Positions 15,179 to 41,733 of a stretch of 64,000 nucleotides of DNA are shown here, piece after piece. The DNA comes from Candidatus Latescibacterota bacterium (GTDB lineage: Bacteria; Latescibacterota; UBA2968). The DNA lies in NCBI GenBank assembly GCA_965116885.1, contig OZ220741.1:3744001-3808000 (forward strand), read 5' to 3'. Both the position numbers and the translations under genes were made by a program. The notes beneath the pieces are model-generated. The model made no database searches, was not told the origin of the DNA, and worked only from the letters and a program-made list of their open reading frames with translations. Numbering within the stretch: the first letter of the stretch is position 1; every line of letters begins with the position of its first letter.

Positions 15179-15206
15179 TTGACGTCTTAAATTGATGCGT
15201 TATAAT
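15179..15206 (+). promoter_or_regulatory. Sigma70-like promoter of the large operon
   Basis: TTGACG-16 nt-TATAAT, about 65 nt upstream of the 15270 start. Confidence 0.6.
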
Positions 15207-15269
15207 TATTTTTAGAGAAAAACCGCCCTTTTTTCACCGCCCAATTGGGCATTAAAATAAGGAAAACCG

Positions 15270-17423
15270 ATGAATATACGTACTATTTTTGCTTTGTTGT
15301 TTTGTAATTCCCTTTTGGGAAGTATTTCCGAGGCGTCTGATTGGACGCACTGGCGTGGTCCTATGCAAAATGGTGCTTCGCCAGAGACGGGGCTTATCTC
15401 TACATGGTCTCTGGAGGGCGAAAATCTGATCTGGCATCGCGAGTTTATCGGCAGATCGACACCGATTATTGTAAATGGTCGGGTCTATGTTATCGGGCGA
15501 ACCGGCAAAGACATAACCGAGCAGGAGCACATCGCGTGTTTTGATGCGGAAACGGGCGACCTTATTTGGGAAAAAAAGTTCAATGTCTGGCACTCAACCA
15601 TAACCTTCAATCGTTTGGGATGGTCAAGCCTGGGGGCCGATGGCGAGACCGGTAATATTTACGCCCATCTCGTCAGTGGGTTATTGCTCTGTTTTGATAC
15701 CGATGGCTATGTCCAATGGCAGCGGTCTCTAACCGAAGAATTTAACCGATTCTCCGGTTATGGCGGACGGTTGCACACACCCGTTGTCGATGGCGATCTG
15801 GTCATCATCAGCATGGGCAATCGCGGATGGGCTGGCGCACCGCCTTCTCATCGGTATGTTGCCTTTAATAAACACACGGGTGAAACCGCGTGGATGGCTC
15901 GTCCGGGAGGCGGTGGACAGGTTGATTTAACCGTTTACTCGACGCCTGTTGTCACGACAATCGACGGGCAGCGCGTGTTGATTGCCGGTAATGGCAATGG
16001 CGGCATTTTTGCCTTTAAAGTCGCAACGGGCGAAAAAGTATGGGGTTTTCCATTCAGTAAGCGCGGCATCAATACCTCGCCTGTCGTGGCTGATAATCGC
16101 GTTTATGTCGCACATAGCGAAGAAAATGTCGATAATACCTCTCTTGGTCGCGTTGCGTGTTTGGATGCGCGCACGGGCAAAGAAATCTGGCGACAAGACG
16201 GTATGACAGCGGGATATGCCTCGCCAGCGGTTCACGCGGGGCGCGTCTATGTTATAGATAATTCGGCCAATGTGCATTGTTTGGACGCCAGGACGGGAAA
16301 GCAATATTGGGAGCAAAATATCGGCACTGTGGGCAAGGGATCGCCGACATGGGCCGATGGCAAACTCTATGTTACTGAAGTCAATGGCGGCTTCCAGATT
16401 CTCAAAACGAACAATATGGATGCGGAAGTGCTCGACAAAAAGAAAATCGCTATGCCCGAAGGTGGGCATGCCGAGATCTACGGGTCTGTCGCAGTTGCGT
16501 ATCGCCGCATCTATTTTGCGACCGAAGCCGGGTTGTTTTGCCTGGGCGATAAAAACGCGCGATTTGAAGTCACATCTTCTCCTCATACAAAGCACGAAAG
16601 CGCGCCTTCGGGTGCCGAACCCGCATCTATTCTTTCGATTCCGGCTGAGGCGACCATACAACAGGGCGAGGTATTGCCCCTGCGGGCAGAGGCTTATGAC
16701 GAAAAGGGGCGCTTGATCGGCAATGCCGACGTTGAATGGTCATTGAGCGGCCTGGATGGAGAGGTGAAGAACAACCAGTTTGTACCATCCAGAGCGGGGG
16801 GGGGCTGGATCACGGCCAAACTGGGGGAATTAACCCGACAAACCTGGGTGCGCGTGGTGCCCGATGTGCCCTGGACAGAGGATTTTGAAAATGTTGAAGT
16901 CGGCACAAATCCACTGCACTGGGTGTGGGGGGGCAGGGGTTTCGTGGTGGAGGAAAAAGATGGCAATAAGGTGCTGACAAAACCACCGGCTGCACGCGGT
17001 TTAGACCGTTCAAATCTCTATGTGGCGCCGTACAAACTCAGTGGTTATACTATTCAGGCCGATCTGATGGGTACGCAAAACAAGCGGCGACGTCCCGATA
17101 TGGGGCTTGTCGCGCATCGTTATATCCTCGACCTTCAGGGCATTCACCAGCGCCTTGAAGTGCGGTCGTGGTCGTCGGATTTGCGCATGGCAAAACGCAT
17201 TGATTTCCACTGGGATATGGGGGTGTGGTACACCATGAAAATGAGAGTTGATATCGAAGGCGGCAAAGCCATCGTCCGGGGCAAAGTTTGGGAAAAAGGC
17301 GATCCCGAACCCGATGTGTGGAGTATCGAAGTTGAGGATCCCCTGCCGATAGAAGAGGGTAGCCCCGCGCTTTACGGCTATTCACCCGCCACGATTTACT
17401 ACGATAATGTGAAAGTGTGGTAA
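15270..17423 (+). CDS. Exported PQQ-like beta-propeller protein with C-terminal Ig-like and beta-sandwich domains
   Basis: Signal peptide, DWTHWRGP, repeated (C/A)xDxxTGxxxW tryptophan-docking motifs, about 270-aa C-terminal extension. Confidence 0.8.
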   Translation: MNIRTIFALLFCNSLLGSISEASDWTHWRGPMQNGASPETGLISTWSLEGENLIWHREFIGRSTPIIVNGRVYVIGRTGKDITEQEHIACFDAETGDLIWEKKFNVWHSTITFNRLGWSSLGADGETGNIYAHLVSGLLLCFDTDGYVQWQRSLTEEFNRFSGYGGRLHTPVVDGDLVIISMGNRGWAGAPPSHRYVAFNKHTGETAWMARPGGGGQVDLTVYSTPVVTTIDGQRVLIAGNGNGGIFAFKVATGEKVWGFPFSKRGINTSPVVADNRVYVAHSEENVDNTSLGRVACLDARTGKEIWRQDGMTAGYASPAVHAGRVYVIDNSANVHCLDARTGKQYWEQNIGTVGKGSPTWADGKLYVTEVNGGFQILKTNNMDAEVLDKKKIAMPEGGHAEIYGSVAVAYRRIYFATEAGLFCLGDKNARFEVTSSPHTKHESAPSGAEPASILSIPAEATIQQGEVLPLRAEAYDEKGRLIGNADVEWSLSGLDGEVKNNQFVPSRAGGGWITAKLGELTRQTWVRVVPDVPWTEDFENVEVGTNPLHWVWGGRGFVVEEKDGNKVLTKPPAARGLDRSNLYVAPYKLSGYTIQADLMGTQNKRRRPDMGLVAHRYILDLQGIHQRLEVRSWSSDLRMAKRIDFHWDMGVWYTMKMRVDIEGGKAIVRGKVWEKGDPEPDVWSIEVEDPLPIEEGSPALYGYSPATIYYDNVKVW

Positions 17424-17455
17424 TCTTTATAACCCCTTACAGATAAAGGAATAAA

Positions 17456-18883
17456 ATGAAATTGAAACGACTTTTTAGCGGATGTGTCATCGTTGGTTTA
17501 ATCGTATCGACTGGTATTGCCGAAGAGGTTATGTGGGGATTTACCCCGGATCGCAATCTCGTGTCAGACGCAAAGAATTTGCCGATGAACTGGAATGTAG
17601 AAACGGGTGAAAATATCGCCTGGAAAGCAGATCTCGGTTCGCAGTCCTACGCCGGTCCCATCAGGATTGGTGGGAAAATATTCATGGGTACAAATAACCA
17701 GATTGAGCGCAATCCCAAAATTACGGGTGACAAGGGCGTGATCATGGCTTTTCGGGAATCCGATGGAAAATTTCTCTGGCAAGCAGCGCATCCCAAGCTG
17801 CCCGCGGGGCGCGTCAATGACTGGCCACAACAGGGCATTTGCTCCACGCCTTATATTCGCGGAGATCGGATGTATTATATCTCGAATCAATGTCGCGTGG
17901 TGTGCGCAGATACAGAGGGTTTTTTGGATGGGGAAAATGACGGTCCATACACCGGGGAAGAGGATACGAGCGACATCGGTGTGGATATTATCTGGGAATA
18001 CGACATGATGGAAGAACTGGATGTGTTCCCTCACAATCTGGCGACCTGTTCGCCCGTGGGAGCGGGCAATCTCCTGTTTGTCATCACCGCCAATGGTGTT
18101 GACGAAGGTCACATCGCCATCCCTTCGCCTTTATCGCCCAGCTTTATTGCGGTCGATCTCAATACGGGGGAACTGGTATGGGAAAAAGCCTATCCGGGTG
18201 AAAGTATCTTGCACGGGCAGTGGTCCAATCCCGCTTATGGCGTTATCAATGGCAAGCCGCAGGTGATCTGCCCCGGGGGCGATGGCTGGGTTTATTCAGT
18301 GGAACCCGAGACCGGCGACCTGATCTGGAAATTTGACTGCAATCCAAAAGACGCTGTGTGGGAGTTGGGTGGGCGCGGCACGCGCAATGCGATTATTTCT
18401 ACCCCTGTTATTTACGATAACAAGGTTTTTATCGGTGTTGGGCAAGATCCGGAGCACGGCGAGGGTATTGGTCATTTGTGGGCTATTGACGCGACGGGTA
18501 CAGGAGATGTGACGGGAAGCCATGCGGTGTGGCACTTTGGCAATGAAAATTACAACCGTACCATTTCAACGGTGGGCATCAGCGATGGCCTGCTCTATGC
18601 GGCAGACCTGAGTGGGTTTGTCTATTGTCTCGATCTAAAAACCGGCACACAGCACTGGAAATACGATACATTTGCCGCGATATGGGGATCGCCTTTTGTG
18701 GCTGATGGGAAGGTGTATATCGGCGATGAAGATGGCGATGTGGCGATTTTGAAAGCTGGAACCCAATTTGAATTGATCAACGAAATCAATATGGGCAGCG
18801 CCGTATATACCACGCCTATTGCAAAAGATGGCATGCTCTATATTGGCACGCGCAATACGCTGTATGCGATTAAGGGCAAATAG
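17456..18883 (+). CDS. Exported PQQ-like beta-propeller protein
   Basis: Signal peptide; AFRESDGKFLW, AVDLNTGELVW, CLDLKTGTQHW repeats. Confidence 0.8.
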   Translation: MKLKRLFSGCVIVGLIVSTGIAEEVMWGFTPDRNLVSDAKNLPMNWNVETGENIAWKADLGSQSYAGPIRIGGKIFMGTNNQIERNPKITGDKGVIMAFRESDGKFLWQAAHPKLPAGRVNDWPQQGICSTPYIRGDRMYYISNQCRVVCADTEGFLDGENDGPYTGEEDTSDIGVDIIWEYDMMEELDVFPHNLATCSPVGAGNLLFVITANGVDEGHIAIPSPLSPSFIAVDLNTGELVWEKAYPGESILHGQWSNPAYGVINGKPQVICPGGDGWVYSVEPETGDLIWKFDCNPKDAVWELGGRGTRNAIISTPVIYDNKVFIGVGQDPEHGEGIGHLWAIDATGTGDVTGSHAVWHFGNENYNRTISTVGISDGLLYAADLSGFVYCLDLKTGTQHWKYDTFAAIWGSPFVADGKVYIGDEDGDVAILKAGTQFELINEINMGSAVYTTPIAKDGMLYIGTRNTLYAIKGK

Positions 18884-18899
18884 AAGAGGTCATTACAAT

Positions 18900-19988
18900 A
18901 TGGAAGTGTTGGCAACATCTTTTGCTGATAAGATCAAAGATGCGCGCGATACCCTCGATGCCCATGTGCGGGATATGGTCGCGTGGCATTTTAATCCCAG
19001 TACGGGATGTCCGTTCTGGCTGGAATTTGCAGCGGAACTGGATTTTGATCCTCGGCGGGAGATCGGTGGATACAGTGACTTGAAATACCTGGGACATTTC
19101 CAGGACGAATGGCTGCGCGGCGGTCCCGTGCGGCGATGGATCCCGCGGGGGAGTGAGGGACAGCGGACCTATGTATTTGAGACAGGCGGCTCAACTGGGG
19201 TTCCCAAATATCGGATCAGCCAAAACGATTTTCAGATCGACTACGAAATGTTCAGCGAGCACCTTTCTGAAGAAACATTTCCAAAGGGAGCGGACTGGTT
19301 GATGTTGGGGCCAACAGGTCCCCGGCGATTGCGTCTGGCTGTCGAATATCTCTGTCAGATTCGCGGTGGGATTTGCTTTCTCGTGGATCTCGATCCGCGA
19401 TGGGTCAACAAGCTGATCAAGCGCGGCGCGCTTCAGGAACTGGAACTCTACAAAGCGCATGTTATCGATCAGGCGCTCACTATTTTGCGCGCGAATGACA
19501 ATGTGAAGTGCATGTTCACGACTCCCAAGCTTCTCGAAGAATTGTGCGAAAAAATTTCTCTTCAAAAAGCCGGGATTAGCGGCATTTTCTGTGGCGGAAC
19601 TGAGATGAATGCACAATTCAATCGCTTTGCGCGAGAAGAGCTTATCCCGGGTGTTGATTTTGTTCCTACCTACGGCAATACCCTGATGGGACTGGCGTAT
19701 TCCAAACCGCTCGAACCCGGAGACAATTACGCGATTACTTATTATCCACCCGTGCCCCGCGCGTTTATCGAACTGGTGAATCCAAATAATCCCGATGAAG
19801 AAGTCGGTTATGACGAAGTCGGGCGCGTGATGCTGACGACGCTTACGAAAGAATTTTTTATGCCCCGCTTTCTCGAACGCGATGAGGCCGAACGCGCCAA
19901 ACCGATTGAAGCCTATCCCTGGGATGGCGTGAGAAATTTGGGTCTGTTCTCCGAGTTGCAGGAATCAGTCGTCGTTGGGGTGTATTAA
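18900..19988 (+). CDS. GriC/EhpF-like truncated ANL adenylating enzyme (arylcarboxylate reductase component)
   Basis: WHF.P.TG.PFW N-terminus, ETGGSTGVPK P-loop, DLDPRW, YGNT, ERD; only 362 aa, so it lacks the ANL C-terminal subdomain. Confidence 0.7.
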   Translation: MEVLATSFADKIKDARDTLDAHVRDMVAWHFNPSTGCPFWLEFAAELDFDPRREIGGYSDLKYLGHFQDEWLRGGPVRRWIPRGSEGQRTYVFETGGSTGVPKYRISQNDFQIDYEMFSEHLSEETFPKGADWLMLGPTGPRRLRLAVEYLCQIRGGICFLVDLDPRWVNKLIKRGALQELELYKAHVIDQALTILRANDNVKCMFTTPKLLEELCEKISLQKAGISGIFCGGTEMNAQFNRFAREELIPGVDFVPTYGNTLMGLAYSKPLEPGDNYAITYYPPVPRAFIELVNPNNPDEEVGYDEVGRVMLTTLTKEFFMPRFLERDEAERAKPIEAYPWDGVRNLGLFSELQESVVVGVY

Positions 19989-20010
19989 ATTGGGTGGATC
20001 GTTTATCCTG

Positions 20011-21150
20011 TCAGGGTAACCCCAACTCACGGCAGAAAGTAGAAAATGGCAACACGCGCGTGTTGTCTGTTGCATTGCCAAAATCCTTCGTGCCCAGATG
20101 TACCTGGTAAAATCGCGGAATATCTGTTCGTTCTCTGAAGTATCGACAGGTGGGAGAAGTACCGCACTCACCAGTTTTGCACTCGACGGCAAATTCGGCA
20201 TATCCATCGCGGAGAACGACAAAATCTACCTCGCGCTTGTCGGTATCTCGGATGAAGCGCAATTCCATGTCATGTCCTTCCGTATCTTGGACATAGTGGC
20301 AGTACTTCAGCAAGTGTCCGGCTACCATGTTCTCAAAACGGGCACCGCGGTCTGCTACGCGCGACCAGTCCCAGAAATACAGTTTCTTTTCCTTGCGTAC
20401 AGCTCTTATCCTCTTCGCTCCAAATGGTGGAATGCGATAGCACAGGTACAGCCTTTCAAAGATTGTGAGCCAGCGTTCGACGGTTTCGTAAGCCACTTGT
20501 AAGAGTTTGCTGAGGCTGTTGACCGAAAGCGGGGATCCCACGCAGGCGGGCAGGTGAGACAGTAGCAGGTCCAGCATGGATACCTCTCGCACATTTTCCA
20601 GATCGCGGAGATCTTCATAGATGACTCTTGCGGAATGCTCGCGCAGCCACCTGCGGTGAAAGCGCGTCTCCCCCCTGAGAAAAGGCTCGGGGAAACCGCC
20701 AAATCTGAGCAATTGCACCACGAGCGCGTTATCTGACTCCCGTCCGCGTTCCGTCAGTGTGAAGGGATGAAGACGGTAGTAGTGATATCGCCCCTGCAAA
20801 GAGTCGCCGCCTTTGCGGTAGTAGTCCAGCCGAGCCGAGCCGGTAACGATAAAGGAAATGGATGTCTTGTTTTTGTCGAATAATCCCTTCATTAGATTTC
20901 GCCATTGCGCATACTTGTGAATTTCATCGAAAATGATGCGGGTCTGGCCAGAAGGGAGTCTTCCCGCCAAAATATCCTCGCGATCGGCCAGTACATCCCA
21001 GTTCAGGTAGGCAGGTGACGATTCATTTTGGCTTTGTCCCAGCAGGGAGATTGCGAGTGTTGTTTTTCCAACCTGACGTGGCCCTCCGATGAATATCATC
21101 CTGTCTGCGATATCTGCTTCAATATGATCCGTGATGTAGCGGGGTTCCAT
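20011..21150 (-). CDS. AAA_14 ATPase with DUF4143/PD-(D/E)XK C-terminus
   Basis: GPRQVGKTT, IFDEIH, VTGS, GGFPE, KLYFWD, REVDF...AVECK; antisense insertion inside the operon. Confidence 0.85.
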   Translation of the reverse strand: MEPRYITDHIEADIADRMIFIGGPRQVGKTTLAISLLGQSQNESSPAYLNWDVLADREDILAGRLPSGQTRIIFDEIHKYAQWRNLMKGLFDKNKTSISFIVTGSARLDYYRKGGDSLQGRYHYYRLHPFTLTERGRESDNALVVQLLRFGGFPEPFLRGETRFHRRWLREHSARVIYEDLRDLENVREVSMLDLLLSHLPACVGSPLSVNSLSKLLQVAYETVERWLTIFERLYLCYRIPPFGAKRIRAVRKEKKLYFWDWSRVADRGARFENMVAGHLLKYCHYVQDTEGHDMELRFIRDTDKREVDFVVLRDGYAEFAVECKTGECGTSPTCRYFRERTDIPRFYQVHLGTKDFGNATDNTRVLPFSTFCRELGLP

Positions 21151-21173
21151 ACTTATCACCTTTCTCGTATGTC

Positions 21174-21237
21174 GTGAGTATTTTAGACTATACCTTAATA
21201 TACTCACGAGTATTTCAGAGTCAATGTGAAAATACTC
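21174..21237. promoter_or_regulatory. Two tandem 30-bp palindromes (GAGTAT-N18-ATACTC), putative operator
   Basis: Copies at 21176-21205 and 21208-21237, directly upstream of the AAA gene start. Confidence 0.55.
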
Positions 21238-21395
21238 TTATATCTCATTGTGCTTGCTTTTACCGGGACAAAAAGCTATTTTTTTATGCTATTCGCGAGC
21301 TAAAGCCTCACTTGGAGATGATTTAGTGGTTATATAAATTTCTTTTTTGAATGTTGCAGAGAAGCGATCATTAGTCTTTTAAAGAGGCGAAATAC

Positions 21396-22820
21396 ATGAT
21401 TCACTTACCCATTTTACGCGCGGGGGAACCGTACACGAGCTTAAGCGTTCAGGAAGTGTCGCATATTCAAACTGGCGAGCCGCTCGTTCAGGTCAGTCAG
21501 GCAAATCGGGGGCTGGTTGCGAAAGACTTAAATGCAGCGGCGGCGAACAAACGGGTGCTCGACAGGCTGAGTGTATCCGAACTCGTGGGCATAACCCGCG
21601 AAGCCGCGCGCTTATTTGCAGAAGCCGATTTGCCCATTGGCGATCATATCCAGACGCCCGATGACTATGTCAAACAGGTGTCTGGTACAACGGGTATGCC
21701 CGAGGCTCTCTGCCGCGCGAATATGGAAAAGATTCAACTCGTGTGTACGGAGATCGAAGCTATTTTAGGTGGTCTCACGCGCGGGTTAGACCTCGCTGTG
21801 TTCGATGAGGGCTGGTACAATCAGGATGGTCGCTCTCTCAGCTATATATGTCAGGCCGATGCCCTCGGGGCTATATTGCCGAGCAATTCGCCGGGAGTAC
21901 ATGCGCTTTGGGTTCCGTCTATACCGCTCAAGGTGCCCCTTGTTCTAAAACCCGGGCGCGAAGAGCCCTGGACGCCTTTTCGAATTGCACAGGCGTTTAT
22001 AGAAGCGGGGTGCCCGCCAGAAGCGTTTGGGTTCTATCCGACGGATCACGGTGGTGCCACTGAAATTTTGCTTCGCTGCGGTCGCTCCATGCTCTTTGGG
22101 GGCGGGGCGACGGTCGCGCCCTGGCTGAGCGATCCCCGCGTGGAAATCCACGGGCCTGGGCAGAGTAAGGTCATTATTGGCGAAGATGTGATAGACCGCT
22201 GGGAGGACTATCTCGACATCGCGGTTGCCTCAATTGCTGCAAATGGCGGTCGCTCTTGCATCAATGCGTCGGGCGTGTGGGTTCCCGCGCATGGTCGAGA
22301 AATTGCCGAAGCACTCGCAGAGCGATTGGCAAAAGTAGTCGGGAGACCTCTGGATGATCCGGAAGCGCAGATCGCGGCATTTACCAATCCCACATTTGCC
22401 GATCAAATTTCGACAGCGATAGACATTCATCTAAAAACTCCAGGGGCTGAAGATTTGACTGAAAAATTGCGCGGTGATCGGCTGGTCGAGATCGATAGAT
22501 TGAAATTCTTAAATCCCACGGTTGTCTGGTGCGATGATTTTGAACATCCTCTTGCAAATACCGAATATCTGTTCCCTTATGCGAGTGTGGTCGAAGTTCC
22601 GCAGTCGGAAATTCTGGACGAGATTGGACCGAGTCTCGTGGTGACAGCAATAACAGAGGACAGTGCATTTATCGACAAATTGCTCAATTCGCCCCATGTG
22701 GAAAGACTCAATGTGGGCGAGATTCCCACGCATCAGATTTCATGGGATCAACCGCACGAGGGCAATTTGTTCGAACACCTGTATCGGCAGCGCGCGCTGC
22801 AATGGGCGAAACAGGCATAG
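21396..22820 (+). CDS. GriD-like aldehyde dehydrogenase-fold protein (probable acyl-AMP reductase)
   Basis: LPSNSPG, LKPG, FGG, catalytic Cys in NGGRSCINAS, E.LFP; HGPGQSK in place of ELGGK. Confidence 0.75.
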   Translation: MIHLPILRAGEPYTSLSVQEVSHIQTGEPLVQVSQANRGLVAKDLNAAAANKRVLDRLSVSELVGITREAARLFAEADLPIGDHIQTPDDYVKQVSGTTGMPEALCRANMEKIQLVCTEIEAILGGLTRGLDLAVFDEGWYNQDGRSLSYICQADALGAILPSNSPGVHALWVPSIPLKVPLVLKPGREEPWTPFRIAQAFIEAGCPPEAFGFYPTDHGGATEILLRCGRSMLFGGGATVAPWLSDPRVEIHGPGQSKVIIGEDVIDRWEDYLDIAVASIAANGGRSCINASGVWVPAHGREIAEALAERLAKVVGRPLDDPEAQIAAFTNPTFADQISTAIDIHLKTPGAEDLTEKLRGDRLVEIDRLKFLNPTVVWCDDFEHPLANTEYLFPYASVVEVPQSEILDEIGPSLVVTAITEDSAFIDKLLNSPHVERLNVGEIPTHQISWDQPHEGNLFEHLYRQRALQWAKQA

Positions 22821-22823
22821 GAG

Positions 22824-23940: not shown

Positions 23941-24023
23941 CCGCAGATGGGCGCAGATGGAAGGCTTTTATGCACACACATGATGAAACAGGTAACAACG
24001 TAACCCTCTGTGTTCATCTGTGT
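23941..24023. repeat. Inverted pair of CGCAGATG-type repeats (mini-element) at a gene junction
   Basis: ccgcagatgggcgcagatgg (23941-23960) and ctctgtgttcatctgtgt (24006-24023, inverted). Confidence 0.5.
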
Positions 24024-34291: not shown

Positions 34292-34300
34292 TTGAGCACT

Positions 34301-34738
34301 ATGCACAGTGAATTTCACACCACTCGCAGGGTAGAATTTTCCGATACGGACATGGCCGGGATTGTACACTTTTCCCGGTTTTTTGTCTTTATGGAAGCTG
34401 TCGAGCACGCTTTCTTGCGCTCGTTGGGGACGAGTGTTTCAACAGAATGGGATGGAAATAAAATCGGATGGCCGAGGTTGGAAGCAACATGTACATATCT
34501 CAGTCCAGCCGTATTTGAAGATGTGCTGGATATTCATCTGAAAGTGATACGCAAAGGCACAAAATCCCTGACCTATCGGTTTGATTTTTCCCGCGGGGAG
34601 ACGGCTATTGCCCGCGGAGAGTTGAGTACGGTATGTTGTATATGCAATCCCGGTGAAAAAATCAGGTCCATTCCGATACCAGATTTTATTGCAGATCAGA
34701 TCGCGGATGAAGCAGATGGCGCAGATAGACGCGGATGA
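34301..34738 (+). CDS. Hot-dog acyl-CoA thioesterase (4HBT/YbgC family)
   Basis: RVEFSDTDMAGIVHFS...E motif. Confidence 0.85.
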   Translation: MHSEFHTTRRVEFSDTDMAGIVHFSRFFVFMEAVEHAFLRSLGTSVSTEWDGNKIGWPRLEATCTYLSPAVFEDVLDIHLKVIRKGTKSLTYRFDFSRGETAIARGELSTVCCICNPGEKIRSIPIPDFIADQIADEADGADRRG

Positions 34739-34775
34739 AGATCGAGAATGTAGGGGCGAGGGCCCTGGCCCGCCC
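34702..34775 (+). repeat. CGCAGATG-type repeats followed by a GTAG REP-like palindrome
   Basis: cgcggatgaagcagatggcgcagatagacgcggatgaa forms the thioesterase C-terminus; gtaggggcgagggccctggcccgccc at 34750-34775. Confidence 0.5.
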
Positions 34776-34795
34776 GAATATTTAAGAGGTCACAA

Positions 34796-35449
34796 ATGGC
34801 ATTAAAAGTTGAAAATCTTACCAAACACTTTGGCGATGTAAATGTTCTGCGGGATATATCTTTTGAAATGGCGGCGGGGCAATCGCTGAGTGTTATGGGG
34901 CCTTCGGGGTCGGGGAAGAGTACCCTGTTGCATGTGCTGGGAACGCTGGACCAACCATCTGAGGGCAGTCTCGAGATTGAGGGGCAGGATCCCTTCGCAT
35001 TATCTGAAATCGAACTCGCGCGGTTTAGAAATCAGGGAATTGGATTTGTGTTTCAAGAGCACCATCTTTTGCCGCAATACTCGGTTCTGGAGAATGTTTT
35101 GATTCCAACGCTGGCATTTAGAAATGGCGATGCGCGAGACCGCGCCCGAGAGATTATTGATCGCGTGGGTTTGTCACATCGCATTGATCACAGGCCCGCT
35201 GAATTATCTGGCGGCGAGCGACAGCGCACAGCTGTTGCGCGTGCGCTCATCAATTCCCCGGCATTGCTTTTGTGCGATGAACCAACGGGTAGCTTGGATG
35301 GGGCGCGGGCAGAGGAAATAGCCGATTTGCTATTTGAATTGCACAAGCGGGAAAATAATATCCTGATCTGCGCGACGCACAGTACGGCGCTTGCCCATCG
35401 CTTTGAGCGGCGTTTTGATCTGCGGGGGGGAACGTGCGTCGAAGTCTGA
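34796..35449 (+). CDS. ABC transporter ATP-binding subunit, LolD/MacB-like
   Basis: GPSGSGKST, FRN..IGFVFQ, LSGGERQR, DEPTG. Confidence 0.9.
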   Translation: MALKVENLTKHFGDVNVLRDISFEMAAGQSLSVMGPSGSGKSTLLHVLGTLDQPSEGSLEIEGQDPFALSEIELARFRNQGIGFVFQEHHLLPQYSVLENVLIPTLAFRNGDARDRAREIIDRVGLSHRIDHRPAELSGGERQRTAVARALINSPALLLCDEPTGSLDGARAEEIADLLFELHKRENNILICATHSTALAHRFERRFDLRGGTCVEV

Positions 35450-38400
35450 TCTACTTCTGGCGGATTAATCTGGCTGTTGCGCTCGGCGTGGCTGTGGCGA
35501 CAGCTGTGCTGACGGGTGCTTTGATTGTGGGCGATTCCGTGCGCGGTAGCTTGCGGGATTTGTCACTGAGTCGTCTGGGCAAAATTGACCACGCCCTGGT
35601 ATCCGAGCGATTTTTCCGCGAGAGTCTGGAACGCGACCTCGAGCGTGAACTCGGCGCTCAGGGTGTTGTATCGGCTATTAGCCTGAGCGGAACGGCTGTT
35701 CATGCGGGATCGAATACGCGGGCTTCTCGCGTTCAAATTCAGGGTATTGATAATCGCTTTGCAAATCTTTTTGATCAAATATTGCCCGAGTTGACGATCG
35801 GGGGAATATTTCCATCGGTTGTCGTCAACGAATCCCTCCAAAAAGAACTCAATGCACAGATTGGCGATGCTATTCTGCTGTCTTTTGAACAATCAGATGA
35901 TATTCACCGCGAATCGCTATTTGGACGTGCTGATGGTGCAGTTCAGACAATTCGACTGACGCTCGCAGGCGTGCTTCCCGATAGGGGAATGGGGCGCTTT
36001 GGCCTTTTCGCTCGCCAGAACGTTCCGCTCAATGCATATCTGTCGCTGCCGGTTTTGCAAAAAGCGTTGGGTCAAAGAGGCCGCGTGAATACATTGCTGG
36101 TGTCGGGTGGTCCAGATACAGGTGTTCAGGAAGCTCTTTCCCGCGTTGCAATACCGGATGATCTCGGCATTGTCATCCGCCCTGAAGCAGATTATTTCGC
36201 TATTGAGAGCACGCAGTTTATTCTCAAATCCCATATTGCAGAGACTATTCAAAAAGTATCTACTGAATTAAACGCGCCCCACATGTCCATTCTCACCTAT
36301 CTGGCGAATATCACACAGGTCGGAGAGAGAGAACTGCCCTATTCCACAATTTCTGCGCTGGATGTTGGGAATCTGGGGACCTTTCAGGTTGTAGATGGAT
36401 CACTACAACTCGGGGAAGATGGTATTTTGCTGAATACATGGGCGGCTGGGGATTTGAACGCACGGGTTGGCGATGAAGTGAAAGTGGCCTATTACGAAGT
36501 CGCGCCTGGAGAAAAACTCCTGACCCGTTGGGCAACATTCCAACTCAAGGGGATTGTGGCAATGGCGGGATTGGGCGCAGATGAAAAGTTGTCTCCCGAT
36601 TATCCGGGCCTGGGGGATGCAAATAATATGGCAGACTGGGAAGCGCCTTTTCCCATAGATTTGAGTCGTGTTCGCCCGAAAGATGAAGATTATTGGGATA
36701 CCTATCGCGACGCACCCAAAGCCTTTGTGTCTGCTGCGAGTGGGCAGCGATTGTGGCAAAGTCGATTTGGCGTATTAACCGCTGTACGCATTGGAGCTAT
36801 TGCGGGAGAGGATATCGCAACAACAGCGAAGCGATTTGAGGATCGCTTGCTGAAAAACATTGCGCCCGAATCGGTTGGTCTGACATTTCAGCCCGTCAAA
36901 CAGCAGGGTCTGACCGCTTCTGCGGGGGCGACGGACTTTAGCGGGCTGTTTATTGCATTCAGTCAATTCCTGATTATTTCTGCAGCTCTTCTGGTTGGTT
37001 TGTTATTTCGTCTGAGTGTGGAGCAGCGAGGCAGGGAAGTCGGGATGCGGATGGTGTCGGGATATACGGGAAAAAAAATCCGCCGACTCTTTAGCCGTGA
37101 GGGCCTTGTGCTGGCCGGTGTGGGCGGTATTACAGGGCTGATAGGCGGTATTTTCTATGCCTATCTGATTATGGTGGGGTTGCGTACTTATTGGGTGGGG
37201 GCGGTTGGAACGTCTGATCTCTCGCTTCACATCCACACATCAAGTCTGTTGTTGGGATATGCCATTTCACTGATTGTGATCCTGCTGGCAATCTGGCTCA
37301 CGCTCCGCCGTTTGGGCAATATTTCTGTTCGCGCATTGTTATCGGGTATTACGGAAGTCGTGCGCACAAGGCCGCGTACAAAATGGTATGCCCTGGGCAG
37401 CCTCGTCCTCGCCGCGCTCAGTCTGGGGGGGGCTGCGACGGTGGATCCATCAACGGGTACAGGTTTGTTTTTTGTTAGTGGCGCGCTGTGGATGGTTTCG
37501 GGATTGTGCTTTCTCTCGCTCTGGTTCAGGCGCGGGCATCGCTCTGTGAGAGAAGGTATTATTGGGATGGGGGTGCAAAATAGCAAGCGGCAGCCCGCGC
37601 GAAGTTTGTTGTGCGCCTCACTCATCGGTTGTGCGTGTTTTGTCATTGTTGCAGTAGGCGCAAATAGGCGAACTGATTTGACTCAAAATATCGCGCAGGA
37701 CAAAGCCTCTGGCACGGGTGGCTTTGCCCTCATCGCCGAAGTTGATGTGCCGATTTATCGGGATTTCAATTCAAAAGACGGGCAATTTGAACTCGGGTTC
37801 TCGCAAGCAGATGCAGAACTTTTGAATCAGGCACGGTTTATTCCGATGCGCGTTTTGCCGGGTGAAGATGCGAGTTGTCTCAATCTTTACAAGCCCGAAA
37901 GCCCGCGTGTTTTGGGCGTTCCCGTAGCTCTGCGTCAGCGAGGTGGATTTTCATTTCAGCAAACGAGTACCGAAGCGGAAAATCCCTGGACTCTATTATC
38001 CGAGGATTTGGGCGCGGATGTGATTCCGGCAATTGGGGATTACAATTCGGCTATGTGGATTTTGCACAAGCAATTGGGCGATGATATTGAGGTTCAGAAT
38101 GAAATAGGGGAAACTGTCAGGCTGAGATTGGTGGGCTTGTTAAAGACGAGTATTTTTCAAAGTGAATTGCTGATTTCCGAAGACAATTTTTTGCGGCACT
38201 TTCCCGATCAGAGTGGGTATGGTGCTTTTCTCGTTGAAACGCAACAACCCATTCAGCTTACTGCGCTTTTGGAAAGCCGATTAAAAGATATTGGGTTAGA
38301 CGCCGTATCCACAGCGCAAAAACTCGCGCATTTTCAGGAGGTCGAAAATACGTATCTCTCCACCTTTCAGACACTGGGGGGATTGGGCCTGCTGTTGGGG

Positions 38401-38733
38401 ACGCTCGGATTGGGAATCGTCCTGTTGAGAAATGTTATTGAAAGACGCGGTGAATTGGCGGTTCTTCGCGCCTTTGGATTTCGCCGCGCTGTGCTGTCGC
38501 GCATGTTGCTCGCGGAGAATGGTTTTTTAATGCTTGTGGGCCTGGCTATCGGCAGCGTCTCCGCGCTTATTGCCGTAGCGCCCCATGTCATGAGCTATGG
38601 TGCGTTAATTCCCTGGGGATCGCTTGCTCTCACGCTTGTCATTATATACGGTGCGGGTCTCATAGCAAGTGCGATAGCCGTTTTCTATGCCCTGCGAGCA
38701 CCTTTATTGCCTGCGTTGAAACAGGAGGCGTGA
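35434..38733 (+). CDS. Duplicated FtsX/MacB-type ABC permease
   Basis: 1099 aa, two large periplasmic domains, EQRGREVG and ERRGELAVLRAFGF motifs; overlaps the ATPase stop. Confidence 0.85.
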   Translation: MRRSLIYFWRINLAVALGVAVATAVLTGALIVGDSVRGSLRDLSLSRLGKIDHALVSERFFRESLERDLERELGAQGVVSAISLSGTAVHAGSNTRASRVQIQGIDNRFANLFDQILPELTIGGIFPSVVVNESLQKELNAQIGDAILLSFEQSDDIHRESLFGRADGAVQTIRLTLAGVLPDRGMGRFGLFARQNVPLNAYLSLPVLQKALGQRGRVNTLLVSGGPDTGVQEALSRVAIPDDLGIVIRPEADYFAIESTQFILKSHIAETIQKVSTELNAPHMSILTYLANITQVGERELPYSTISALDVGNLGTFQVVDGSLQLGEDGILLNTWAAGDLNARVGDEVKVAYYEVAPGEKLLTRWATFQLKGIVAMAGLGADEKLSPDYPGLGDANNMADWEAPFPIDLSRVRPKDEDYWDTYRDAPKAFVSAASGQRLWQSRFGVLTAVRIGAIAGEDIATTAKRFEDRLLKNIAPESVGLTFQPVKQQGLTASAGATDFSGLFIAFSQFLIISAALLVGLLFRLSVEQRGREVGMRMVSGYTGKKIRRLFSREGLVLAGVGGITGLIGGIFYAYLIMVGLRTYWVGAVGTSDLSLHIHTSSLLLGYAISLIVILLAIWLTLRRLGNISVRALLSGITEVVRTRPRTKWYALGSLVLAALSLGGAATVDPSTGTGLFFVSGALWMVSGLCFLSLWFRRGHRSVREGIIGMGVQNSKRQPARSLLCASLIGCACFVIVAVGANRRTDLTQNIAQDKASGTGGFALIAEVDVPIYRDFNSKDGQFELGFSQADAELLNQARFIPMRVLPGEDASCLNLYKPESPRVLGVPVALRQRGGFSFQQTSTEAENPWTLLSEDLGADVIPAIGDYNSAMWILHKQLGDDIEVQNEIGETVRLRLVGLLKTSIFQSELLISEDNFLRHFPDQSGYGAFLVETQQPIQLTALLESRLKDIGLDAVSTAQKLAHFQEVENTYLSTFQTLGGLGLLLGTLGLGIVLLRNVIERRGELAVLRAFGFRRAVLSRMLLAENGFLMLVGLAIGSVSALIAVAPHVMSYGALIPWGSLALTLVIIYGAGLIASAIAVFYALRAPLLPALKQEA

Positions 38734-38739
38734 AGCGCG

Positions 38740-40275
38740 TTAATTTATCTTTTTGAGTGTGAGTTCATAGCACGCCGCTTCCCGATCATTTCGCACGAGA
38801 AGATAAGGTGCGGCAAGTGTGGGAGCGTTCCAGGTGTGGCTGTTTAGAGCAGGGAAGCGCGCGCGTTCATTGTGTTCATCTGGCGAGGCATCGACGAGGA
38901 CGACATCGCCCGATTCGGTTTGGATGAGCAAGAGATCATCTACCAGAATGAGTTGCCCGTGGCCATAGCGCCCTCGCTTCCATTTTCGCTGTCCGTCTGC
39001 CAGATCCAAACACACGAGGACACCATCGTCCAGTCCGTAAATATATCCGTCTTTATAGACCATATTGGCAAATTTGGCTTTGAGACGAGGGCTTTTCCAT
39101 ATCCGTTCGGTAGTAAATTCATCCCGCCTATTTTTTCCAATTTGGATCAATTCACTGCCAATGCCGTAACCTGTTGATACAAAGATGCTGTCTCCGGGCA
39201 GTGGAATAGGTTGGGCAACGTGTTGCGTCATCCCACCAGTCCAGGGATATTCCCATAGCAACTTGCCGGAAATTGGATCGTGACCCGCAACTTGTCCCCT
39301 GTTAAAAATGAGTATTTGATCCATTCCCGCTATGGAGACCAGGCTGGGTGAGCTATGCCCTGCTCTTGCACGGCCACCTCCCCAAACAATAGCACCGGTT
39401 TCTTTGTCATAAGCCATTAGAGATTGCTCGTTTCGTCCGCCTGGACTCACGATTACTTTGTCGTCTAAAATGAGAGGCGAACCGCTCATGCCCCATTCTT
39501 TAACACGCGCATCGGTTTCTTTCACAGTATCGCGCGACCAGATTTCTCGACCGGTTTCCAAATCGAGACAGGTGAGGATGCCGGTTGCGCCAAAAGAATA
39601 AACGCGATTGCCCGATATGGTTGGCGTGGCTCGCGGACCAATTCCGGCAATCGCGGTTTCATATCGTGCGCGCGCGCTGTGACGCCATTTCTCTTTTCCG
39701 GTTAAGAGATCGTAACAAGCTATGGTTTCGTCTTCGCCTTTTTGCTCTTGAGTCACGGCAGAGCGTCCAACAACGGCAAAGGCGGAATAGGCTTGACCAA
39801 CGGGTACGCGCCAGAGTAATTTGGGGGGATGCTGGCTCCAATCAGATTCCAGTTTTATTCCATTGAGGATGGCGTTGCGATGTGGACCCAAAAATTGAGG
39901 ATAATCTATATCGGGACTGCCCGAAGATTGTCTCGCCACGGATATCGATGTAACAGAAGACCAGCGCCACTCTATCTTGGGAGCCAAATCGCCCGTAAAA
40001 CCGCGAATTTGAAATAATGAAACTGTCAGGATGATCAGGAGTATAAGAATACTTAGACCCCGCAGGCGGATTTTTCGACTCGCTCGGGAAAAAGCAAAGA
40101 ACCAGAGACAGAGCAAAATGGAGCCGACTGAGCAGACGAGTATCGTCGGCATAACCTGCATCTGGCGGTTGGGCCTTTCGGGAATCCAGATCGCCGATAA
40201 TACAATGACCACCAGTACACCGATAGCAATAGCGGGCCACCAGCGAATGGATTTGGGATAAAGAGGAGCAGGCAT
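38740..40275 (-). CDS. Membrane-anchored PQQ-like beta-propeller protein
   Basis: Three N-terminal TM helices, then YPQFLGP, GPRATP, HSSP, TWNAP; similar to the 26496 protein. Confidence 0.8.
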   Translation of the reverse strand: MPAPLYPKSIRWWPAIAIGVLVVIVLSAIWIPERPNRQMQVMPTILVCSVGSILLCLWFFAFSRASRKIRLRGLSILILLIILTVSLFQIRGFTGDLAPKIEWRWSSVTSISVARQSSGSPDIDYPQFLGPHRNAILNGIKLESDWSQHPPKLLWRVPVGQAYSAFAVVGRSAVTQEQKGEDETIACYDLLTGKEKWRHSARARYETAIAGIGPRATPTISGNRVYSFGATGILTCLDLETGREIWSRDTVKETDARVKEWGMSGSPLILDDKVIVSPGGRNEQSLMAYDKETGAIVWGGGRARAGHSSPSLVSIAGMDQILIFNRGQVAGHDPISGKLLWEYPWTGGMTQHVAQPIPLPGDSIFVSTGYGIGSELIQIGKNRRDEFTTERIWKSPRLKAKFANMVYKDGYIYGLDDGVLVCLDLADGQRKWKRGRYGHGQLILVDDLLLIQTESGDVVLVDASPDEHNERARFPALNSHTWNAPTLAAPYLLVRNDREAACYELTLKKIN

Positions 40276-40348
40276 AAAAATTCCTTTTTTTATTGTGAAA
40301 TGTCAGTCCGCCAAACCTCTATCTCCAACGTAAAAAAAAAAGAAAGGT

Positions 40349-40377
40349 TTGACAACCCCTCATTAAACAGATATTTT
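40349..40377 (+). promoter_or_regulatory. Sigma70-like promoter
   Basis: TTGACA-17 nt-TATTTT upstream of the 40423 start. Confidence 0.45.
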
Positions 40378-40422
40378 GCATTTCTGAATTGCAAAATGTC
40401 ATCTTACAGAAAGGAGTTTGTG

Positions 40423-41733
40423 ATGAAGAAATGGCTTTGGGTTTTAATGGGTTTTTGTCTCATTCCGATTCTGGTTCAGGCAAAACACCATGCGGCGAAG
40501 GAAACACAGAATTGGCCCCACCTGCGAGGACCGAATGCAAATGGACTCGTGGATAAGGGCAATCCCCCTGTGGAATGGAGCGAAGATACCAATATCCGTT
40601 GGAAAGTAAAAATTCCAGGTACGGGTCACGCCACGCCTATTATATGGGGTGATAAAATTTTTGTTCAGACTGCGGTTAAGACCGACAAAACCGTAGAAGT
40701 TGCCCAGACAGCCAGAAAGCCTTTACCCACTCATATCTATCATTTTAAGCTACTTGCACTGGATCGCAAAAGTGGCGATGTGGTGTGGGAAAAGACCGTG
40801 CGCGAGGCGCTACCCCACGAAGGCACCCATAAAACGGCTAATTATGCTTCCACATCGGGTGTTACGGATGGCGAACATCTGTACGCATTTTTCGGTTCAT
40901 GGGGCTTGTATTGCTTTGATTTCGACGGCAATTTGAAATGGGATAAGGACTTTGGCGATATGAGAGTTGCGGGTTCTTTTGGAGAAGGTTCATCGCCGAC
41001 GATTCACGGCAATACGCTGATTATTAACTGGGACCACCAGGGCGCTTCGTTTATTGTCGCGCTGGACAAACGCACGGGTGAGGAAATCTGGCGCAAGGCG
41101 CGACGGGAAAGAACGACGTGGACCACACCGATCGTTGTCGAACACAAGGGTACGCAACAGATTATTGTGGGCGCGAGCGGAAAGACCCGAAGTTACGATC
41201 TAAAAACTGGTGATGTGTTATGGGAATGCGCGGGACTGGGTACAAATGTCATTCCCACCGCCGTCTATGCCGATGGCATCGTCTATGTCACAAGCGGTCA
41301 TAGACAGCCGGCCATGCAGGCGATTTCACTCGATAAAGCCAAAGGCGAAATTACAGGTACAGATGCCGTGCTGTGGACAGTTAATGATAATACCCCTTAT
41401 GTTTCTTCGCCTCTTCTTTCTGGCAACAATATCTACAGCACGAAAAATACCAGAAATATTTTAGCCTGTTACAATGCCAAAACAGGCGAAACAGTTTTTG
41501 GTCCTGCGCGACTCCAGGGTATAAATCGCATATATGCCCCACTGGTTGGTACAAGTGATCGCGTGTATATCGCCGGGCTGGCTGGCACGACTTATGTGAT
41601 CAAGAATGGCAGCGAATTTGAAGTGCTCGCAAAAAATAAACTCGACGAAGGTACCGGTGCATCTCCCATTATCGCGGGCGATGAGTTGTATTTGCGCGGC
41701 ACCGAACACCTGTATTGTATTGCGGCAAATTGA
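40423..41733 (+). CDS. Exported PQQ-like beta-propeller protein
   Basis: AAGGAG RBS, signal peptide, NWPHLRGP, FGEGSSP, WTTP, YVSSP. Confidence 0.85.
   Translation: MKKWLWVLMGFCLIPILVQAKHHAAKETQNWPHLRGPNANGLVDKGNPPVEWSEDTNIRWKVKIPGTGHATPIIWGDKIFVQTAVKTDKTVEVAQTARKPLPTHIYHFKLLALDRKSGDVVWEKTVREALPHEGTHKTANYASTSGVTDGEHLYAFFGSWGLYCFDFDGNLKWDKDFGDMRVAGSFGEGSSPTIHGNTLIINWDHQGASFIVALDKRTGEEIWRKARRERTTWTTPIVVEHKGTQQIIVGASGKTRSYDLKTGDVLWECAGLGTNVIPTAVYADGIVYVTSGHRQPAMQAISLDKAKGEITGTDAVLWTVNDNTPYVSSPLLSGNNIYSTKNTRNILACYNAKTGETVFGPARLQGINRIYAPLVGTSDRVYIAGLAGTTYVIKNGSEFEVLAKNKLDEGTGASPIIAGDELYLRGTEHLYCIAAN

Follow-up and report, generated by a model that had tools for sequence, protein, structure and literature searches.

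A modular, propeller-rich locus of a Latescibacterota bacterium with a conserved core of EhpF-like adenylase, radical SAM and TonB receptor genes

A 64,000-nucleotide stretch of contig OZ220741.1 from a Candidatus Latescibacterota bacterium (assembly GCA_965116885.1; this whole stretch is the window below) carries at positions 15179-41733 a locus in which genes for secreted propellers of the BamB/PQQ_2 type alternate with genes for enzymes and a receptor. We found that this operon-like locus is real and is built of modules. From presence/absence counts across 21 related loci it follows that its core consists of the propeller genes prop2 and prop3, the genes for an EhpF-like adenylase, an aldehyde dehydrogenase (ALDH)-like protein, an iron-containing alcohol dehydrogenase (Fe-ADH), a HemN-family radical S-adenosylmethionine (SAM) enzyme and a TonB-dependent receptor, and usually a further propeller gene, prop4. 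The genes for a GT4 glycosyltransferase and an ATP-binding cassette (ABC) system are loosely attached to this core, and those for a PaaK-like ligase, a halogenase, a small permease and a thioesterase are accessory. What is new is that a strongly conserved core that includes propellers is co-located well beyond the clade of the window. We read the locus, with a probability of roughly 0.4, as a modular small-molecule pathway in which an aryl or heteroaryl acid would be optionally halogenated, reduced, modified, glycosylated, exported and re-imported.

The 21 loci, 20 of which are close relatives, were obtained by scanning genome contigs with exact peptide words, and genes were counted in each of them by tblastn with the window proteins. 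Twenty of the loci are titled Latescibacterota or Latescibacteria and encode radical SAM proteins 81-98% identical to that of the window, and one, L021, is titled Deferribacteres and encodes a radical SAM protein that is 62% identical. In all 21 loci prop3 lies directly upstream of the radical SAM gene, the two genes abutting or overlapping in 17, and the receptor gene lies downstream of the radical SAM gene (21/21, partial at contig ends). Prop4 is found between the radical SAM and receptor genes in 17 of the 21, being absent from L007, L009, L018 and L019 and doubled in L021. The EhpF-like gene was found in 19 loci, both misses coinciding with contig ends, and the ALDH-like gene likewise in 19, one miss being a contig end and the other L021. 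Purifying selection acts on all 11 genes compared with their counterparts in L014 (dN/dS 0.04-0.16), most strongly on the EhpF-like gene (0.042) and the radical SAM gene (0.040). Synteny kept across 21 loci makes the linkage non-random, as had been supposed in the original prediction, a reading of the window made from its letters alone.

That prediction had also treated 16 genes as a single unit, a view that the relatives do not uphold. Nineteen loci continue beyond the receptor gene, and of these 17 have the PaaK-like gene, 15 the halogenase gene and 16 the GT4 gene; the PaaK-like gene is absent from L016 and L021 (2/19), the halogenase gene from L015, L016, L017 and L021 (4/19), and the thioesterase gene from L021. 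Past the receptor gene, L016 continues instead with PPDK and ParAB genes, L017 with sulfatase genes and L015 with a decayed TnpB-like stretch. The gene order of L021 begins with prop2, the EhpF-like gene, the Fe-ADH gene, prop3, the radical SAM gene and a gene for a secreted protein without assignment, and continues with two prop4 genes, the receptor gene, an SSF symporter gene, a PD-(D/E)XK gene, a GT4 gene (60% identical) and a partial ABC ATPase gene (60% identical). The secreted protein of L021 (positions 6059-6862 of that locus), placed between the radical SAM and prop4 genes, is 267 residues long, gives a weak DUF6503/LolA-like signal and has no counterpart in the window. An extra gene occupies the same interval in L014, and the two are mutually unrelated; that of L014 has no Pfam match and, judged from its sequence, is presumably a mobile-element nuclease.

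The interval that separates the EhpF-like gene from the ALDH-like gene (19989-21395 in the window) is a hotspot of insertion. Of the 18 loci that carry both genes, L011 and L019 have gaps of 62 and 93 bases, respectively, with nothing inserted; an AAA_14 gene stands alone at the junction in nine of the 18, its remnants alone in one, and 3.6-5.7 kb of other genes in six. The inserted genes differ from locus to locus: two transglutaminase-like DUF3857 proteins are encoded in L003 (2072-6354) and L015 (2229-6326), a DDE transposase and a protein with LDL-receptor repeats and an EF-hand in L016 (2722-6317), and other genes together with AAA_14 in L002 and L006. Over the whole of the 21 loci the AAA_14 gene is full-length in 12, reduced to fragments in L017 and absent from the other eight. 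We also observed TnpB/Cas12f-like open reading frames (ORFs) or remnants at 56767-58263 (minus strand) in the window, at 6951-7811 in L014 and at about 18000-18400 in L015, some of those in relatives lying within or beside the cluster, which suggests that elements of the IS200/IS605 type may reshape the locus.

In the window itself, the ORF listing and translations give 16 plus-strand genes from 15270 to 38733, interrupted by a single antisense gene at 20011-21207 (minus strand) that by Pfam encodes an AAA_14/DUF4143 ATPase and is an insertion outside the pathway, and two more propeller genes lie past the end of the run, at 38740-40275 (minus) and 40300-41733 (plus). Positive gaps between genes amount to 507 of 26,464 bases, the biggest being 188 bases. 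Because start codons were adjusted to 18900 (EhpF-like), 25124 (radical SAM), 26496 (prop4) and 32485 (GT4), apparent long overlaps vanish and the junctions quoted in the original prediction appear: 22820/22824, 25124/25127 (an ATGA overlap), 29915/29919 and 35434/35449 were all verified. The predicted run of 16 co-oriented, tightly packed genes with an antisense AAA interruption is thus borne out by ORFs, translations and junctions. The single promoter placed at 15179 stands in part. The match at 15179-15206 (plus strand; TTGACG-16-TATAAT, 11/12), which sits upstream of prop1 in the 177-base gap that separates it from a divergent PhyH gene, is the best sigma-70-like match of its region, but it is a consensus match only, and the 17 sigma-70-like matches in the region are not above the number in shuffled sequence (mean 15.2). 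GC content, overall and at third codon positions (GC3), gives no island signal, GC3 resembling that of the flanks, which shows that composition does not indicate recent transfer into this genome.

Profile libraries and matches to PDB entries agree with every enzyme family named in the original prediction, namely an EhpF-type adenylase, an ALDH-like protein, an Fe-ADH, a HemN-like radical SAM enzyme, a TonB receptor, a PaaK-like ligase, a flavin halogenase, a GT4 glycosyltransferase, a 4HBT thioesterase, a LolD-like ATPase and an FtsX/MacB permease. For the Fe-ADH, PaaK-like ligase, GT4, thioesterase, LolD-like ATPase and FtsX permease the assignment is clear at the level of the family and none reaches an equivalog cut-off. 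The predicted lack of a polyketide synthase (PKS), non-ribosomal peptide synthetase (NRPS) or terpene core is likewise confirmed, no such core being found by Pfam and NCBIfam among the 19 proteins of the region.

The EhpF/GriC-type adenylase (18900-19988, plus strand) is a stand-alone protein of 362 residues that matches EhpF (PDB 3l2k) with E = 6.6e-43, its residues 17-348 aligning to residues 19-351 of 366, so that the match is near full length and the protein is C-terminally short as is typical of the EhpF type. No NCBIfam model matched it, and a protein atlas queried with it returned only generic 'AMP-binding' clusters. The ALDH-superfamily protein (21396-22820, plus; PF00171, E = 3e-14) is a GriD/EhpG-like candidate for its reductase partner and a distant member of its superfamily (53 bits, Pfam), belonging to a small family (1795 representatives at a threshold of E = 0.001, 327 at 1e-30). 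The two genes adjoin directly in L011 and L019 and are separated by inserts elsewhere. Cys288, the predicted catalytic residue of the ALDH-like protein, is nearly invariant among 39 homologues, and a His aligns with the position of the Glu that in ALDHs serves as the hydrolytic general base; the retention of Cys288 together with the replacement of Glu by His would fit a reductive enzyme. The Fe-ADH gene follows (22824-23939, plus; PF00465, E = 4.5e-46; PF25137, E = 1.3e-35). The closest representatives of the ALDH-like protein are fusions to an Fe-ADH, P0384 (872 residues, 49% identical) and P0394 (856 residues), with a third, P0386 (625 residues), carrying a truncated Fe-ADH domain; the Fe-ADH half of P0384 is 44% identical to the Fe-ADH of the window. 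Such Rosetta-stone fusions support two successive reductions as the probable function of the pair. The layout of the fusions is AdhE-like, in a family that is otherwise paired with an adenylase.

Pairs of EhpF-like and ALDH genes recur in a Streptomyces cluster, which plasmid records place in a chorismate/aminobenzoate-type setting, and on a Halalkalicoccus plasmid. In grixazone biosynthesis GriC forms an acyl-AMP that GriD reduces to the aldehyde (PMC10179220), and EhpF is among the steps that convert phenazine-1,6-dicarboxylate (PMC3175449). The assignment of the window pair to this two-component type, as originally proposed, is upheld by the EhpF match (E = 7e-43) and the nearly invariant catalytic Cys. 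GriC/GriD (grixazone) and EhpF/EhpG (D-alanylgriseoluteic acid) share with the window pair an adenylase of about 360 residues and a partner from the ALDH superfamily in which the catalytic Cys is retained, and the same pairing is found in the Streptomyces and Halalkalicoccus records, where the proteins are called 'AMP-binding protein', 'arylcarboxylate reductase' or 'phenazine biosynthesis protein'. The window adenylase is, however, only 32-37% identical to these homologues and falls in a separate tight clade, and its gene has propeller, radical SAM and TonB receptor genes as neighbours, not genes for phenazines or for 3-amino-4-hydroxybenzoic acid (3,4-AHBA). AdhE is comparable in that the ALDH-like and Fe-ADH domains of P0384 and P0394 follow each other in AdhE order; unlike in AdhE, the two parts are separate genes in the window and the ALDH-like protein is paired with an adenylase in place of the use of acyl-CoA.

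The radical SAM enzyme (25124-26470, plus strand; motif CRKRCKFCYF) matches HemN (E = 1.6e-31) and NocN (E = 2.2e-25) in the PDB, its residues 56-431 aligning with HemN and 52-252 with NocN, and carries a Phe in place of the fourth Cys of the HemN CxxxCxxCxC motif. It has the radical SAM core, HemN_C domain and N-terminal extension of HemN, NocN, NosN, ChuW and HutW, but unlike HemN and the class C methyltransferases it lies under all family cut-offs (HutW, 185.5 bits against 400; HemN, 183.5 against 324.95; HemW, 169.1 against 205.4; STM4012, 171.3 bits, also below its cut-off) and belongs to a large clade of its own whose members are at least 63% identical across phyla. By these scores the enzyme is predicted not to be an orthologue of any named HemN subfamily.

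The receptor (27783-29915, plus) is of the siderophore class, scoring 235.7 bits with TIGR01783 (cut-off 223.5), and its best PDB matches are the siderophore and metallophore receptors 5nec, 5fok, FhuA, CntO, FoxA and Fiu. A siderophore-class receptor is one hallmark of a metallophore locus; of the other, an NRPS or IucA/IucC domain, none is found in the 19 proteins. PqqU was considered as an identity for the receptor and rejected (32.8 bits against a cut-off of 1200). PqqU-type scavenging of pyrroloquinoline quinone (PQQ) has been reported for 14 Latescibacterota genomes (PMC12124388).

The six propellers all have a signal peptide or membrane anchor in their translations and are only 21-34% identical to one another. 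Prop1 (15270-17423, plus strand; PF13360, E = 6.5e-38) has a signal-peptide-like N-terminus and an extension of about 290 residues, its C-terminal 307 residues giving no Pfam hit. Prop2 (17456-18883, plus; PF13360, E = 2.8e-23) is the best conserved of the six: it is 69.5% identical across residues 289-475 to the partial gene of L021, and it lies upstream of the EhpF-like gene at a distance of 16-98 bases in relatives and of 195 bases in L021. Prop3 (23970-25127, plus) is a symmetric, eight-bladed propeller (PF13570, 202.7 bits; PF13360, 151 bits) with designed and archaeal PQQ_3 propellers and BamB as PDB neighbours, and the overlap of its stop codon with the start of the radical SAM gene predicts translational coupling of the two. 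Prop4 (26496-27737, plus; PF13360, E = 5e-44) is secreted and dispensable. Prop5 (38740-40275, minus; PF13360, E = 1.1e-37), convergent to the operon, is anchored in the membrane by N-terminal hydrophobic segments and is 34% identical to prop4, and prop6 (40300-41733, plus; PF13360, E = 9.5e-23) is secreted; the compared loci end before prop5, which places the linkage of prop5 and prop6 in relatives outside their reach. PQQ_2 domains occur in six of the 19 proteins of the region and in none of 25 scanned elsewhere in the window (one-sided Fisher p = 0.0038). The propellers are of BamB-like size (385-511 residues; prop1 with its extension, 717), and their neighbours among solved structures are BamB and symmetric PQQ_3 scaffolds. 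All six score 32.4-79.5 bits with the PQQ dehydrogenase model TIGR03075, whose cut-off is 480. Because of these low scores and the BamB/PQQ_3 neighbours, 'PQQ-like' is to be read as a Pfam name and not as evidence for a cofactor; of the 'PQQ-like propeller' cluster originally described, six divergent BamB/PQQ_2-type propellers remain, and the quinoprotein models fail. We read the propellers of the core (prop2, prop3 and usually prop4) as secreted, eight-bladed and free of a cofactor.

Downstream of the receptor, the accessory PaaK-family aryl-acid ligase (29919-31190, plus strand) scores 254.7 and 221 bits with PaaK models, below their cut-offs, and matches PDB 4r1l with E = 1.7e-56. The adjoining accessory gene, after a gap of 19 bases, encodes a short flavin-dependent halogenase of 419 residues (31210-32469, plus; PDB 8zop, E = 5.6e-67; PltA, E = 4e-55) with the motifs GGGPAGS, WFWYIP and GDAFGFIDP. 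Its K73 aligns with the Lys of the KKF/RKY motif in 8zop, PltA and 5buk, which is presumably catalytic. We found no description of 8zop, the best structural relative, in the searchable literature. The protein has the GxGxxG and WxWxIP motifs and conserved Lys expected of a flavin halogenase, and together with the PDB matches they bear out the proposal that this WxWxIP flavoenzyme is a halogenase, halogenation itself being a prediction from sequence. A flexirubin or aryl-polyene reading (FlxY, 166 bits) was rejected, as Pfam finds no ketosynthase or acyl carrier protein. The GT4 glycosyltransferase gene (32485-33786, plus; PF00534, E = 8.8e-30) is followed by an accessory gene for a 163-residue membrane protein (33800-34291, plus), 90-99% identical in relatives, that has no Pfam hit and is probably a half-size EamA/DMT permease; this lead comes only from language-model features, by which it scores 0.97 to atlas clusters named 'putative EamA domain-containing protein' and 'DMT permease'. 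The accessory hot-dog thioesterase of the 4HBT/YbgC type (34301-34738, plus; PF13279, E = 1e-10) scores 55.3 bits with TIGR00051 (cut-off 68.7). The run ends with a LolD/MacB-type ABC ATPase (34796-35449, plus; TIGR02211, 241.9 bits, below the cut-off of 307.75) and a duplicated FtsX/MacB-type permease of 1099 residues (35434-38733, plus; PF02687 in two stretches, and PF12704).

Beyond the close relatives, the EhpF-like protein, the radical SAM enzyme and the receptor are co-located well outside the window's clade. All 120 clusters listed for the EhpF-like protein are 72-89% identical to it, with KSB1, Calditrichia and Poribacteria among the source names, and all 120 listed for the radical SAM enzyme are 63-97% identical (Latescibacteria, Poribacteria, KSB1), the number of clusters at 63% identity or more exceeding 120; the receptor falls to 49-69% (Gemmatimonadetes, Acidobacteria, Vicinamibacteria). 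The wider synteny rests on 'longest contig' values shared among the three hit lists and on the matching of accessions. Ten such values are common to the radical SAM and EhpF-like lists (including 25357, 43541, 65075 and 181960), ten to the receptor and radical SAM lists (6189, 12559, 22725 and 59650 among them) and six to the receptor and EhpF-like lists (such as 17695, 24740 and 137657), short values being open to chance matches and 3419 and 8233 being doubtful, as their sources differ. Cluster look-up placed all three genes on one contig of 25,357 bases and the receptor and radical SAM genes together on one of 45,204 bases, and in four KSB1 assemblies the accession numbers of the EhpF-like and radical SAM proteins are 7 apart. 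In the EhpF-like tree, 42 sequences form one tight clade that a long branch separates from the Streptomyces and Halalkalicoccus homologues (SH-aLRT 98). In the radical SAM tree, where labels are few, the same phylum name (Latescibacteria, Poribacteria) occurs in different well-supported clades, and identity within a phylum (67%) is about that between phyla (63-66%), a pattern compatible with either transfer of the module between phyla or old paralogy.

Taken as a pathway, the locus allows the following chemistry. The PaaK-like ligase would convert an aryl or heteroaryl carboxylic acid to its CoA thioester, the halogenase would halogenate the ring of the thioester-bound acid and the thioesterase would then free the acid. 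The EhpF-like protein would adenylate the free acid and pass it to Cys288 of the ALDH-like protein, which would reduce it to the aldehyde, and the Fe-ADH would take the aldehyde to the alcohol. The radical SAM enzyme may methylate a carbon or decarboxylate a side chain, and the GT4 enzyme may place a sugar on the alcohol or a phenol. The ABC system would export the product, and the TonB receptor would re-import the product, its metal complex or a precursor, which the propellers would handle in the periplasm. We take the product to be a small metabolite that the cell secretes and imports again, either akin to a metallophore or a signal, rather than a protein-bound cofactor. This logic of loading, halogenation and release followed by reduction from acid to aldehyde to alcohol, much of which had been proposed originally, is the most economical chemistry for the gene set, and the fusions of ALDH and Fe-ADH add support to it. 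Pfam and NCBIfam find no scaffold-forming enzyme, carrier protein or flavin reductase among the 19 proteins.

Several observations weigh against a biosynthetic pathway, beginning with those missing functions. L021 passes directly from the EhpF-like to the Fe-ADH gene without an ALDH-like gene between them. Across the named phyla the EhpF-like protein is 72-78% and the radical SAM enzyme 63-70% identical, above what is usual for specialised metabolism, and some of the short contig matches that extend the synteny may be due to chance. Secreted proteins interleaved with a TonB receptor give the locus the look of a utilisation locus, an SSF symporter gene follows the receptor gene in L021 and precedes the EhpF-like gene of Halalkalicoccus, and a TAXI-TRAP importer abuts the cluster. 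Carboxylate reduction removes a metal ligand. A search of positions 14000-43000 with Rfam at E up to 1 found no riboswitch or other match, and the best Fur-box-like site in the leaders agrees at 11/19 positions, a level reached by 289 matches across the window, although the test is weak evidence since the Fur motif of this phylum is not established.

Because the scaffold is missing, L021 lacks the ALDH-like gene, conservation is very high and the layout resembles that of a utilisation locus, the chief rival holds that an aromatic, heteroaromatic or tetrapyrrole carboxylate of external origin enters through the receptor, that the propellers bind or process the import and that the carboxylate reductase, Fe-ADH and radical SAM enzyme convert it to the form needed, the halogenase, GT4 and ABC genes being unrelated add-ons. 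No scaffold enzyme would then be necessary, the receptor gene is part of the core and lies beside the radical SAM gene or prop4 in 21/21 loci, and the high conservation across phyla suits a nutritional function. The SSF symporters of L021 and Halalkalicoccus are 30% identical (E = 3e-57), and the TAXI-TRAP importer (41820-44692) would add a further transporter. HemN-family enzymes are found beside TonB receptors in anaerobic haem use (ChuW/HutW), and HutW is indeed the top NCBIfam match of the radical SAM enzyme; its 185.5 bits are, however, far under the 400-bit cut-off and equal to the HemN score. Reduction of an acid at the cost of ATP, NAD(P)H and SAM is not catabolic, the core has no conserved inner-membrane importer in the 21 loci, the GT4 and ABC exporter genes are still linked in L021, and neither a riboswitch (Rfam) nor a Fur box (leader scan) was found. 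We consider uptake and remodelling of this kind unlikely, though a serious competitor to the biosynthetic pathway. A further reading, which we regard as improbable, is that the core is an unrecognised, multi-phylum pathway of Gram-negative bacteria, perhaps spread by transfer, that takes an imported or recycled aromatic, heteroaromatic or tetrapyrrole carboxylate as its input and makes a reduced, radical-SAM-modified alcohol, which the periplasmic propellers would bind as a ligand or cofactor.

The original prediction had proposed that the 16 genes may make a new redox cofactor or ligand for the propellers, by analogy with mycofactocin, a reading that can be extended to maturation of the PQQ or cysteine tryptophylquinone (CTQ) kind. 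The propeller genes are indeed interleaved with the enzymes, are under purifying selection and, in the case of prop2 and prop3, remain even in L021, prop3 is predicted to be coupled in translation to the radical SAM gene, and QhpG (136.6 bits) and LodB (123.2 bits), both CTQ maturases, are among the matches of the flavoenzyme. There is, however, no room for a precursor peptide, the gaps totalling 507 bases with 188 bases as the largest and, by eye, no ORF in them longer than 7 codons. The radical SAM enzyme is of the HemN family and not a SPASM/twitch, MftC-like maturase of the kind that has a partner with a RiPP recognition element (RRE), no Mft model appears among the NCBIfam matches listed (for three proteins, the best 25), and the glycosyltransferase is a GT4, which together undo the mycofactocin analogy. 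A QhpD/QhpG/QhpC/QhpF type of maturation fares no better: the QhpG score is under its cut-off of 240 and far under the 226 bits of the halogenase match, the radical SAM enzyme is not of the SPASM type and no small ORF is present. The propellers, BamB-sized and scoring 32-80 bits against the PQQ dehydrogenase cut-off of 480, are secreted and the enzymes cytoplasmic, and the halogenase, PaaK-like ligase, thioesterase and prop4 are dispensable. With mycofactocin, PQQ-enzyme and CTQ-maturation tests all failing, nothing found ties the product to the propellers as their cofactor, and we judge this proposal very unlikely. We hold it just as doubtful that the genes form no functional unit at all, that is, a chance run on one strand of an expanded propeller family beside unrelated enzymes. 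PQQ repeats are counted among the eukaryote-like (repeat) proteins of sponge-associated Latescibacterota genomes (PMC12993501), six propellers that are 21-34% identical would be old paralogues, several junctions tolerate insertions and GC3 is like that of the flanks; but gene order is held down to a radical SAM identity of 62%, the EhpF-like, radical SAM and receptor genes co-occur on 12-65 kb contigs of other lineages, overlaps between stop and start codons exist, and propellers number 6/19 inside and 0/25 outside the region (p = 0.0038).

Comparison with known systems places the locus as an orphan halogenase and ligase cluster built on an EhpF/GriC-type reductase. Like the short halogenases PltA, Mpy16 and Bmp2, the window halogenase has GxGxxG, WxWxIP and GDAxxFxDP motifs and the aligned Lys, with E-values of 4e-55 (5dbj), 7.3e-54 (5buk, which we take to be Mpy16) and 7.4e-46 (5bva, presumably Bmp2). 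Those enzymes act on pyrroles bound to a carrier protein; by Pfam, no carrier protein is encoded in the window cluster. Loci for small aromatic-acid metallophores such as pyridine-2,6-dithiocarboxylic acid (PDTC) and quinolobactin have no NRPS or PKS genes but encode an AMP-ligase together with tailoring enzymes and a TonB receptor, and they use a heteroaromatic carboxylic acid from primary metabolism. The present locus differs from them in having no sulfur-transfer genes, in the predicted carboxylate reduction and in that no iron-regulation signal was found.

The closest prior art is a preprint by Loureiro et al. (bioRxiv 10.64898/2026.08.03.742642), which defines as 'Halo_AMP' those clusters that combine an FADH2-dependent halogenase with an AMP-binding enzyme and reports 840 of them from sponge metagenomes. 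According to its accessible text, these clusters have no MIBiG match, fall into 20 groups, with 9% of the families from Latescibacterota, frequently contain PQQ-like, TonB, radical SAM, glycosyltransferase, thioesterase and ABC genes and are treated as biosynthetic, with BagE, YtkN, Bmp2 and BrtI as best hits. The present locus, with a flavin halogenase gene adjoining that of a PaaK-like AMP ligase, falls within this definition. CC A, which that text analyses in depth, is acidobacterial and includes P450s, and the window cluster has none; moreover, halogenase and ligase are the core as the preprint presents it and are the dispensable part of the locus described here. The claim that the system is undescribed therefore needs qualifying: halogenase and AMP-binding clusters as such had already been flagged by the preprint. 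Our literature search found no description of propellers together with a carboxylate reductase, a radical SAM enzyme and a receptor.

These results tie the propellers to a conserved trio, the EhpF-like protein, the HemN-family radical SAM enzyme and the siderophore-class receptor, and not to the halogenase. With the trio, the search for the substrate can start from a few testable genes, the likely tailoring genes being separable from the core, and reduction of an acid to an alcohol is indicated as the central chemistry. Names attached to the hits of the trio genes include KSB1, Calditrichota, Poribacteria, Acidobacteriota and Gemmatimonadota. Latescibacterota, Poribacteria and related phyla carry greatly expanded sets of BamB/PQQ_2-type propellers, to which, to our knowledge, no function has been assigned; if the improbable reading with a propeller-bound alcohol were true, these 'empty' propellers would for the first time gain a small-molecule partner. 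Were the product instead a metallophore, a signal or a salvaged cofactor, it would explain a gene neighbourhood that is widespread in uncultured marine and sediment bacteria.

Other genes of the window were noted in passing. Directly after prop6 and on the same strand, 41820-44692 encodes a TAXI-family TRAP transporter, a binding protein and a fused permease both scoring above their NCBIfam cut-offs, which could possibly be an inner-membrane carboxylate importer for the cluster; the compared loci end earlier, so that its linkage in relatives lies outside their reach. Three genes encode PhyH-family Fe/2-oxoglutarate dioxygenases (14337-15092, 52494-53339 and 53332-54243, all on the minus strand). 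The first of them, divergent from the operon, matches hydroxylase and 'chlorinating enzyme' models weakly and below threshold, and it has a counterpart at the same position in L011 and, in part, in L017. Two large DUF6785 membrane proteins are encoded at 12321-14309 (minus; also DUF6784) and 62287-63999 (plus), and at 4636-7632 lies the gene for a UvrD-type helicase of 998 residues with an RNase_T-type exonuclease domain inserted between the helicase domains. Genes for polysaccharide use occupy 44683-61297 and include those for a heparinase II/III-like protein, two sulfatases, a mandelate racemase-like protein, an L-rhamnose isomerase and metallophosphoesterases.

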